Source: a virus. From it: DNA of 64,000 bases. The stretch lies in IMG/VR virus record IMGVR_UViG_3300003322_000968, positions 13,573 through 77,572 of that record, one strand, 5' to 3'. The notes under the pieces are model-generated. The model made no database searches, was not told where the DNA came from, and worked only from the letters and a program-made list of their open reading frames with translations. This document shows positions 55,348 through 56,794 of the stretch, one piece after another (positions within the stretch are counted from its first letter, which is position 1; every line of letters begins with the position of its first letter). The position numbers were made by a program, and so were the translations under genes.

Positions 55348-56794
55348 GTTGTATCGAACCTGTACCTTTTAATTAAAACTAATACGCAATGTCGTTTTTT
55401 TGTATCAACCTTAAAATTCAATAAAACAGCAATGAATCATTCTTTGTATTAACCATGTAAGTTTACAAACAATCTATAACCGCCATGTTGCATCAACCTT
55501 GCAAACAAGGATTACAGACACCTACCATAATCCTTATTTTCTAACATGATAATTGTATCAACCTTGCAAATACCTTAATCAGCAGCTGCCGGAGGCCATT
55601 TGTCGTTGTATTAACCTTGAGAATTTACTAACAAATTTAATTATTGGTTGTCGCTTTTCAACCTGATTGTATCAACCTCGCAAATTAGAATTACAAACCC
55701 TGCAACACATTTTACTAACTGCAATTGTATCAACCTTGTAAAATTAGGAATTATAAACCCCAGCGCAAGGACGGCATTACCAAAGACCGAAGTTGTATCA
55801 ACCTTGCAAAATAGTGCTACAGCACCGGTAACTACTGCATTGTCCTTAACCTCGTTGTATTAACCTTGCTAAATGAAGCTACTTACAACATGGCCTCACA
55901 GTGGAGTTTCTATATAGAGCTGTATCAACCTTGCAAAATAGGATTACAAACACCAGAAAGCGCTGAGATGGCTGACTATTTGAAGTTGTATCAACCTTTC
56001 AAATTAGTCTTTTAAATCAAAAGACAATAAGTTGTATCAACCTTGCAAAATTAGTTCCCACATACAGCTCACCTCGGTGAAGGAAATTTTATCGGCTGGT
56101 TGTATCAACCTTGCGAATAAAGACTACATACGCCTGCAAAGCCGTGGGTGCGGTGAATACATAGTTGTATCAACCTAGTAAATTAGTATTATACACAGCT
56201 TATTCCTTTCTAATCATTATAAATTATCCGTTGTATCAACCTTGCAAATTAGTGCTACGTACAACAAAAAAGGATTTAATCCAATGGACGATTCTGCTGT
56301 ATCAACCTTGCAAATTAGGATTACAAACACCCACAAAAATTAGTAGCACTAGAGCTAGCCTGTTGTATCAACCTTGCAAATATGTGCTACATACAACGCG
56401 ATCCTGCCATGGCCCGATATATACATAGTTGTATCAACCTTACAAATTAGTGCTACATGCAACAACGGTCGCCAGGCTTTACCTTATCATTGGTGTTGTA
56501 TCAACCTTGTAAATTAGCGCTACATACAACCCTATCTTTTAAAGGATATTCATTATCACCGTTGTATCAACCTTGCAAATTAGTGCTACATACAACAATT
56601 TTAGAGGGCAGTCCTGAAGAGGTAGTGTTGCATCAACCTTACAAATTAGTGCTACATACAACAAGAAAAGATAAGGAAGATATGGATTTGCTGTTGTATC
56701 AACCTTGCAAATTAGTGCTACATACAACTTATATTCAAAAAGTATATTTTTTTAGTTAGTTGTATCAACCTTACAAATTAGTGCTACATACAAC
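55348..56794 (-). CRISPR. CRISPR array, 24 repeats/23 spacers, consensus (minus) GTTGTATGTAGCACTAATTTGCAAGGTTGATACAAC
   Basis: Repeat starts (+) at 55348, 55399, 55443, 55487, 55552, 55605, 55666, 55724, 55792, 55854, 55919, 55985, 56031, 56099, 56164, 56230, 56296, 56362, 56428, 56495, 56561, 56627, 56693, 56759. Spacers are 29-31 nt near the cas gene; units degenerate and shorten distally. Confidence 0.97.

Follow-up and report, generated by a model that had tools for sequence, protein, structure and literature searches.

A CRISPR spacer of a phage matches the gene adjoining its own nuclease-dead Cas12f

The phage genome studied here is an IMG/VR record of 77,572 bp (77.6 kb) that CheckV rates as complete. 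Coordinates are those of the window, the stretch of 64,000 nucleotides of this record that was analysed. The genome encodes a large terminase, a portal protein, a virion protein and an integrase. The last is a tyrosine integrase at 27040-28182 on the plus strand (PHROG 1, E 3e-14), and because of its presence the phage is regarded as temperate. Neither cas1 nor a sigma-70 region 2 or region 4 domain (PF04542, PF08281) was found in the CheckV-complete 77.6-kb genome, and the open reading frames neighbouring the effector gene had no match in Pfam. On the minus strand, a packed run of co-directional genes ends with a 97-aa gene, the effector gene dcas12f and a CRISPR array. A strong hairpin followed by a T-run, resembling an intrinsic terminator, lies at 62505-62529 on the minus strand and probably shows where the transcription unit leading down to dcas12f and the array begins. 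The features of the locus are as follows.

58243 to 58250, minus strand: sequence ATAAAATC, directly 5' of the protospacer on the non-target strand, the expected place of a TAM
58213 to 58242, minus strand: protospacer (self-target), 29/30 match, with an rA:dC mismatch at guide position 8
58069 to 58362, minus strand: target gene, encoding a small phage protein of 97 aa (ORF 58069-58401, called from 58362)
56947 to 58068, minus strand: dcas12f, encoding a nuclease-dead, C-terminally truncated Cas12f of 373 aa
56795 to 56946, minus strand: candidate tracr-like RNA region between the effector stop codon and the first repeat, with an anti-repeat at 56900-56911 and then a hairpin and T-run
56398 to 56427, minus strand: self-matching spacer, sixth from the effector-proximal (leader) end, between the repeats at 56362-56397 and 56428-56463
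55400 to 56794, minus strand: CRISPR array with a 36-nt repeat and spacers of about 30 nt

Among proteins of solved structure, the effector matched "nuclease-deactivated Cas12f" (Fta dCas12f, 9n9c) over its full length (residues 5-364, E 2.6e-77), and the profile of the effector family matched the same entry at E 1.9e-140. Structures of active Cas12f (9nzo, 8hr5 and 8j12) matched the effector at E values of 1e-26 to 1e-14. When the effector was aligned with active 9nzo, GVDLG aligned with DCYLS in RuvC-I and QMERL with VLNNY in RuvC-II, and both RuvC acidic residues are replaced in the effector. The protein stops before the zinc ribbon and RuvC-III, at the equivalent of about residue 417 of the 506 residues of 9nzo, and this C-terminal end point is the same in all of the aligned homologues (47/47). 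Judged from these alignments, the effector is a true Cas12f with a dead nuclease. It shares 36% identity with sigmaE-type dCas12f. As the phage has no sigma-70 region 2/4 domain and no Cas1, the effector was grouped with the array-linked dCas12f homologues and not with the sigmaE-coupled activators. The original prediction had started from the premise that a non-cutting effector could tolerate self-targeting. This premise holds, since the Cas12f is truncated and RuvC-dead, so that a self-match need not be lethal, and since a second dCas12f lineage carries a self-match of 30/30.

About ten array units nearest the effector gene are well preserved, and the repeats decay toward 55400; 17 repeats lie within 9 mismatches of the consensus. 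The 3' end of the repeat (...GGTTGATACAAC in the effector orientation) is common to the arrays of relatives. For the duplex between the anti-repeat and the repeat 3' end, a dG of -25.8 kcal/mol was obtained, compared with -17.1 +/- 2.8 kcal/mol for 300 shuffled repeats, none of which reached -25.8 (0/300). No Rfam family matched the tracr-like region. The position of the array downstream of the gene, the decay of the repeats distal to the gene, the anti-repeat and the conserved repeat 3' end together make the minus strand well supported as the guide strand. The same layout, an array and an upstream tracr-like RNA directly downstream of the effector gene, is present here and in relatives. Five newer spacers lie on the leader side of the self-matching spacer.

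Joints between array positions that are apart in the window were also seen, at 55412/56298 and 56379/55985 (runs X2 and X3). In a minority contig of 438 nt (depth about 4 of 73), array repeats are joined in another order with a different spacer. The minority contig indicates an array variant, or the array of a sibling, in the population. Compared with GenBank phages, the array gave matches at chance level only, and one further spacer fragment had no match (0) among viral contigs.

The spacer at 56398-56427 is identical to the site at 58213-58242 in 29 of 30 positions, the sole difference being T at 56420 in the spacer and C at 58235 in the target. In the guide orientation (minus strand), this difference is at position 8 and would place rA opposite dC. 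The original prediction was correct in every detail of the match, that is, in its 29/30 identity, the position of the mismatch, the 5' flank and the distance of 145 bp. The identity stretches one base beyond the spacer (30/31). Base -1 of the protospacer flank, which ends ...AAAATC, is C, and C is also the last base of the repeat. Searched against the whole phage genome, the spacer hit its self-target with a BLAST E value of 3e-10, and a second match to it arose in none of 100 dinucleotide shuffles. No other spacer of the array has a match in the whole 77,572-bp genome, and self-matches of the seed alone (11-nt prefix) were not enriched in the genome (1 observed, 1.07 expected). The reading frame is kept within the match, with YVYIGP in the spacer and YVCIGP in the genome.

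The target gene is the last one before dcas12f, and its stop codon, TAA, adjoins the effector ATG at 58068 without a gap (TAAATG), so that 145 nt separate the end of the protospacer from this ATG. Its product had no match in Pfam or PHROG, and an Atlas model predicts its structure confidently (pTM 0.76). An exhaustive HMMER search yielded distant viral homologues, which have A, S, A and A in the column of the mismatch, where the genome has Cys and the spacer a Tyr codon. As the homologues carry small residues there, the genomic Cys seems to be the original state and the Tyr codon to have come about later, in the spacer. The simplest history is probably that the Cys allele was the template of the spacer, which subsequently underwent a C-to-T change on the plus strand. 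Such a spacer-side mutation argues, though not decisively, against an escape mutation in the protospacer, and also against a Tyr-bearing sibling as the source.

A sibling phage with the YVYIGP allele had been proposed as an alternative source of the spacer. The search of related phages for this perfect allele came back empty, and the proposal is left unsupported: the Tyr allele is nowhere on record, being absent from 5.8 billion protein clusters, from viral contigs and from the four metagenome runs that contain the phage, although databases may lack such a sibling. The 90% cluster of the target protein consists of one sequence, found on 4 contigs, and a spacer pattern allowing either base at the mismatch had no match in viral contigs.

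Two further observations were made on the target gene. The gene (58072-58362, minus strand) and its upstream neighbour (58373-58732, minus strand) resemble each other as weak paralogues would (a single comparison gave 25% identity and E 0.018), and the central motif of the target protein recurs several times in proteins of 750-1823 aa (P0122 and P0126-P0128). Integration of a circular cassette by a Campbell-type event through spacer-protospacer homology was considered and rejected, since the target gene runs uninterrupted through the site and can be aligned with its homologues on either side.

The phage was found in four root-metagenome runs, all belonging to one study. The contigs of all four runs equal the window sequence at both the spacer and the target, and none of them has a variant base at 58235, although contigs cannot show rare alleles. 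Run X3 also contains low-depth contigs that are about 89-95% identical to the effector gene and cover window positions 56913-57025 and 57833-58019. These contigs reveal the presence, in the same root sample, of a related phage with a homologous dcas12f.

For comparison, 40 related loci were used, 28 of them viral and 12 metagenomic, whose dCas12f homologues are 29-60% identical. Nine phage records were assembled whole and all of their spacers compared with the whole sequence; 140 spacers or post-repeat segments were compared. A small array lies directly downstream of the effector gene in most of the 40 related loci. The spacer-target pair itself proved not to be conserved: a spacer against the region upstream of the locus's own effector was found in 0 of the 40 related loci and in 0 of the nine whole phage records, and none of the 40 loci has a homologue of the target gene. 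On this comparison, a spacer aimed at the operon of its own effector is not a trait of the family. No close relatives turned up in viral contigs when the effector, the upstream protein of 264 aa and the family of the target gene served as queries. The terL-related phages L041 and L042, whose records are 66-67% complete, have no spacer match, effector or target gene, and bacterial homologues (in genome contigs and a sample of 401 genomes of the class) are without arrays.

Only two of the 140 spacers or segments have targets outside arrays, namely the present one and a spacer of a gut-phage lineage (L012/G008) whose effector is 32% identical. In the latter, the spacer at L012:11510-11539 matches its own genome perfectly (30/30) at L012:16866-16897, 5.3 kb beyond the array, and the match extends over two flank bases, "GC", which equal the repeat end. 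The site lies at the end of a 45-aa XRE-like ORF, which is followed by an in-frame TAA-ATG and the rest of an HTH-like sequence. The site is also present in two siblings that do not have the spacer (L008:17175-17204 and L009:9286-9315). Two independent lineages therefore tolerate self-matching, as would be expected from a non-cutting effector. TAM inference has these two natural protospacers to draw on and no others; their flanks are ...ATC and ...TGC.

Several other matches and arrangements were noted in the comparison set. An 18-nt match upstream of the L034 effector was rejected as AT-rich sequence of low complexity. In L004:11233-12867 (G003:12484-14096), an 18-repeat array with a 37-nt repeat is split by about 340 bp, the insert containing an 80-aa fragment homologous to the C-terminus of dCas12f (G003:13072-13251), and one L004 spacer is present twice (L004:11573 and L004:12013); this split array suggests a partial duplication of the cassette. 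On the reverse strand of G005, the segment after the last repeat of a four-repeat array (from 17107) has an exact 18-nt match at 69737-69754 (E 2.8e-5), which starts at guide position 6 and so is probably not a seed-type target.

The crRNA has the same sense as the operon and would pair with the plus strand, which is the operon template strand, and because of this pairing the geometry fits a block of transcription into dcas12f. As established for dCas12a, a Cas12-type protein bound in such an orientation is a roadblock facing RNA polymerase. SigmaE-type dCas12f places the transcription start 45-48 bp downstream of the TAM (PMC13472631; bioRxiv 10.1101/2025.06.10.658880), and the equivalent start position here is near 58197 on the minus strand. 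Fta dCas12f needs a 5'-G TAM, and it forms a partial R-loop of 7 bp, with positions 8-9 as the passage to the full R-loop (bioRxiv 10.1101/2025.06.10.658880). As these positions are the R-loop checkpoint in the solved homologue, the mismatch at position 8 should weaken binding; by analogy with this 36%-identical protein, the position is expected to be a sensitive one. The target is intragenic, and a scan for sigma-70-type promoters gave no more sites than shuffles did, although such a scan does not cover promoters of Bacteroidota.

The chance that a uniformly drawn self-spacer falls within 500 bp upstream of the effector gene, on the right strand, is about 0.3% (a post hoc figure), and such a location, in the sole orientation that would block or drive effector transcription, would favour a functional link. 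A selected autoregulatory loop, in which the dCas12f-crRNA complex sits in its own operon, throttles read-through and thereby steadies the levels of effector and guide as a natural CRISPRi feedback, is nevertheless less likely than not, though to be taken seriously. It would agree with the short distance to the effector ATG in a tight co-directional operon, with a guide directed to the template strand, and with the retention of the spacer behind newer ones and its fixation in the four runs; a dead effector would make the arrangement viable, and natural guides are known to act in the autoregulation of Cas9 and of other systems, according to work cited in PMC13472631. However, the original prediction of such a loop keeps only its dead effector and its blocking geometry and is without comparative support, as no such pair exists at any related dCas12f locus examined and the target gene is lineage-specific, missing from the relatives. 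Moreover, the target lies within a gene and has no recognisable promoter as far as the scan reaches, the mismatch, apparently a change on the spacer side, falls in the seed or checkpoint region, and a neutral bias of acquisition accounts for the position. We hold it equally doubtful, when the idea is put more broadly, that the array spacer aims the dead Cas12f of the phage at the template strand of its own operon, giving CRISPRi feedback, or a start site set by the guide if a host sigma factor takes part, with a control of dose tuned by the mismatch at position 8.

The start of transcription just mentioned is the core of RNA-guided activation: by recruiting a sigma factor together with RNA polymerase, the complex would let transcription begin near 58197 on the minus strand, which is 129 nt before the dcas12f ATG. 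The required order of TAM, protospacer and gene is present, and the effector resembles sigmaE-type dCas12f both in its identity and in its full-length match to 9n9c; but the complete phage genome has no sigma-70 region 2/4 domain, the effector sits with the array-linked homologues, for which repression was proposed, and the flank has C at -1 instead of the 5'-G TAM of Fta, which makes activation highly improbable. The spacer could also be a weapon directed at kin, taken from or aimed at a sibling with the Tyr allele, so that it would silence the dcas12f operon of a rival while the seed mismatch partly protects the resident. Run X3 does contain, at low depth, a relative with an effector gene of about 89% identity, the L012 spacer has its match in two siblings without that spacer as well, and mini-arrays of archaeal viruses are reportedly aimed at close relatives (said to have been described by Medvedeva et al. 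in 2019). Against this, the Tyr allele is missing from the protein cluster, the viral contigs and the four runs, the small residues of the homologues at that column make such an allele unlikely, and for a protein that only binds, a single mismatch is poor discrimination between self and non-self. We therefore regard a weapon against kin as improbable, if less so than activation.

The reading that we prefer, tentatively, is that of a self-derived spacer which was captured beside the array and has been tolerated since, and which acts at most as a weak, incidental brake on its own operon. The protospacer is 1,419 bp from the leader-proximal repeat (56794 to 58213), on its leader side. Hotspots of protospacers around active CRISPR arrays were found in P. 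furiosus (PMC5737086, Shiimori et al. 2017), are known for E. coli type I-E according to work cited there, and have been ascribed to nicking at the leader-proximal repeat (PMC5737086). With such a bias of acquisition beside active arrays, the location of the target is explained without selection. Two points run counter to this neutral reading: the spacer was kept behind five newer spacers and is identical in four runs, though of one study; and the evidence for hotspots comes from type I and archaeal systems, not from type V-F or phage-borne arrays (PMC5737086).

In this preferred reading of capture and tolerance, we infer that: the spacer is a true CRISPR spacer copied from DNA of the phage's own lineage, the stretch beside the array being the most likely source; its capture probably took place in the temperate stage, inside a host supplying Cas1-Cas2, as a temperate lifestyle would give the adaptation machinery of the host time to act on a prophage array; and it may persist because dead Cas12f is able to bind DNA yet unable to cleave it. 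Provided that ...ATC serves as a TAM, a bound dCas12f dimer would hinder RNA polymerase on its way into dcas12f, the tracr-like RNA and the array. Such hindrance would amount to incidental negative feedback, presumably lessened by the rA:dC mismatch, which most likely stems from the C-to-T change in the spacer.

Among known systems, archaeal portogloboviruses carry virus-borne mini-CRISPR arrays that take part in inter-viral conflict. The present array resembles them in being viral, in coming without adaptation genes and in having a spacer that matches the gene pool of the virus itself; in contrast to them, no relative with the perfect allele was found here, and the effector is phage-borne and nuclease-dead. 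A close counterpart is a cluster of array-associated dead Cas12f proteins of Bacteroidota, mentioned briefly, with repression suggested, by Hoffmann et al. (Nature 2026; PMC13472631, Extended Data Fig. 1a,b). In that cluster as in the phage, a truncated, RuvC-dead Cas12f of about 360-380 aa lies beside an array, a conserved RNA is encoded upstream of the array, and guides match the carrier's own DNA (PMC13472631). However, the cluster targets an efflux promoter, whereas here the target is inside the operon of the effector itself, and the present system is borne by a temperate phage and would use a full-length array spacer as its guide. With the sigmaE-coupled dCas12f (Fta, 9n9c; PMC13472631), the phage effector shares the protein family, the loss of the nuclease and an orientation that places the start before the downstream gene; but those systems have an operonic rpoE, a single chimeric guide of 14 nt and G at -1, while the phage has no rpoE, an array with 30-nt spacers and C at -1.

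The long-form tracrRNA used with Cas9 and the repeat-like Cas-regulating RNAs (bioRxiv 10.1101/2023.03.03.530964) offer a likeness of another kind, as a guide encoded at the locus leads the effector back to its own operon without cutting, which in the present phage is putative. Those Cas-regulating guide RNAs are conserved stand-alone elements with partial complementarity to promoter targets, whereas the guide of the phage is an ordinary array spacer with a 29/30 match in a coding region and is not conserved. The acquisition hotspots (PMC5737086) have in common with the present case a protospacer 1.4 kb from the leader-proximal repeat, on the leader side; the systems that show them are type I or archaeal and have their own Cas1-Cas2, while adaptation here would come from the host and the effector is derived from type V-F. 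The new element is the self-match adjoining the effector.

If the loop works, it would be the first virus-borne dead-Cas system to regulate itself through a canonical spacer, and it would offer a compact natural design for self-limiting CRISPRi. Even if the match is a by-product, two independent phage dCas12f arrays carry full-length self-matches, and these are direct genomic evidence that the effectors do not cut and that phage-borne arrays acquire phage DNA. The spacer and its target also form a natural substrate for studying the binding, the TAM and the mismatch tolerance of array-linked dCas12f.
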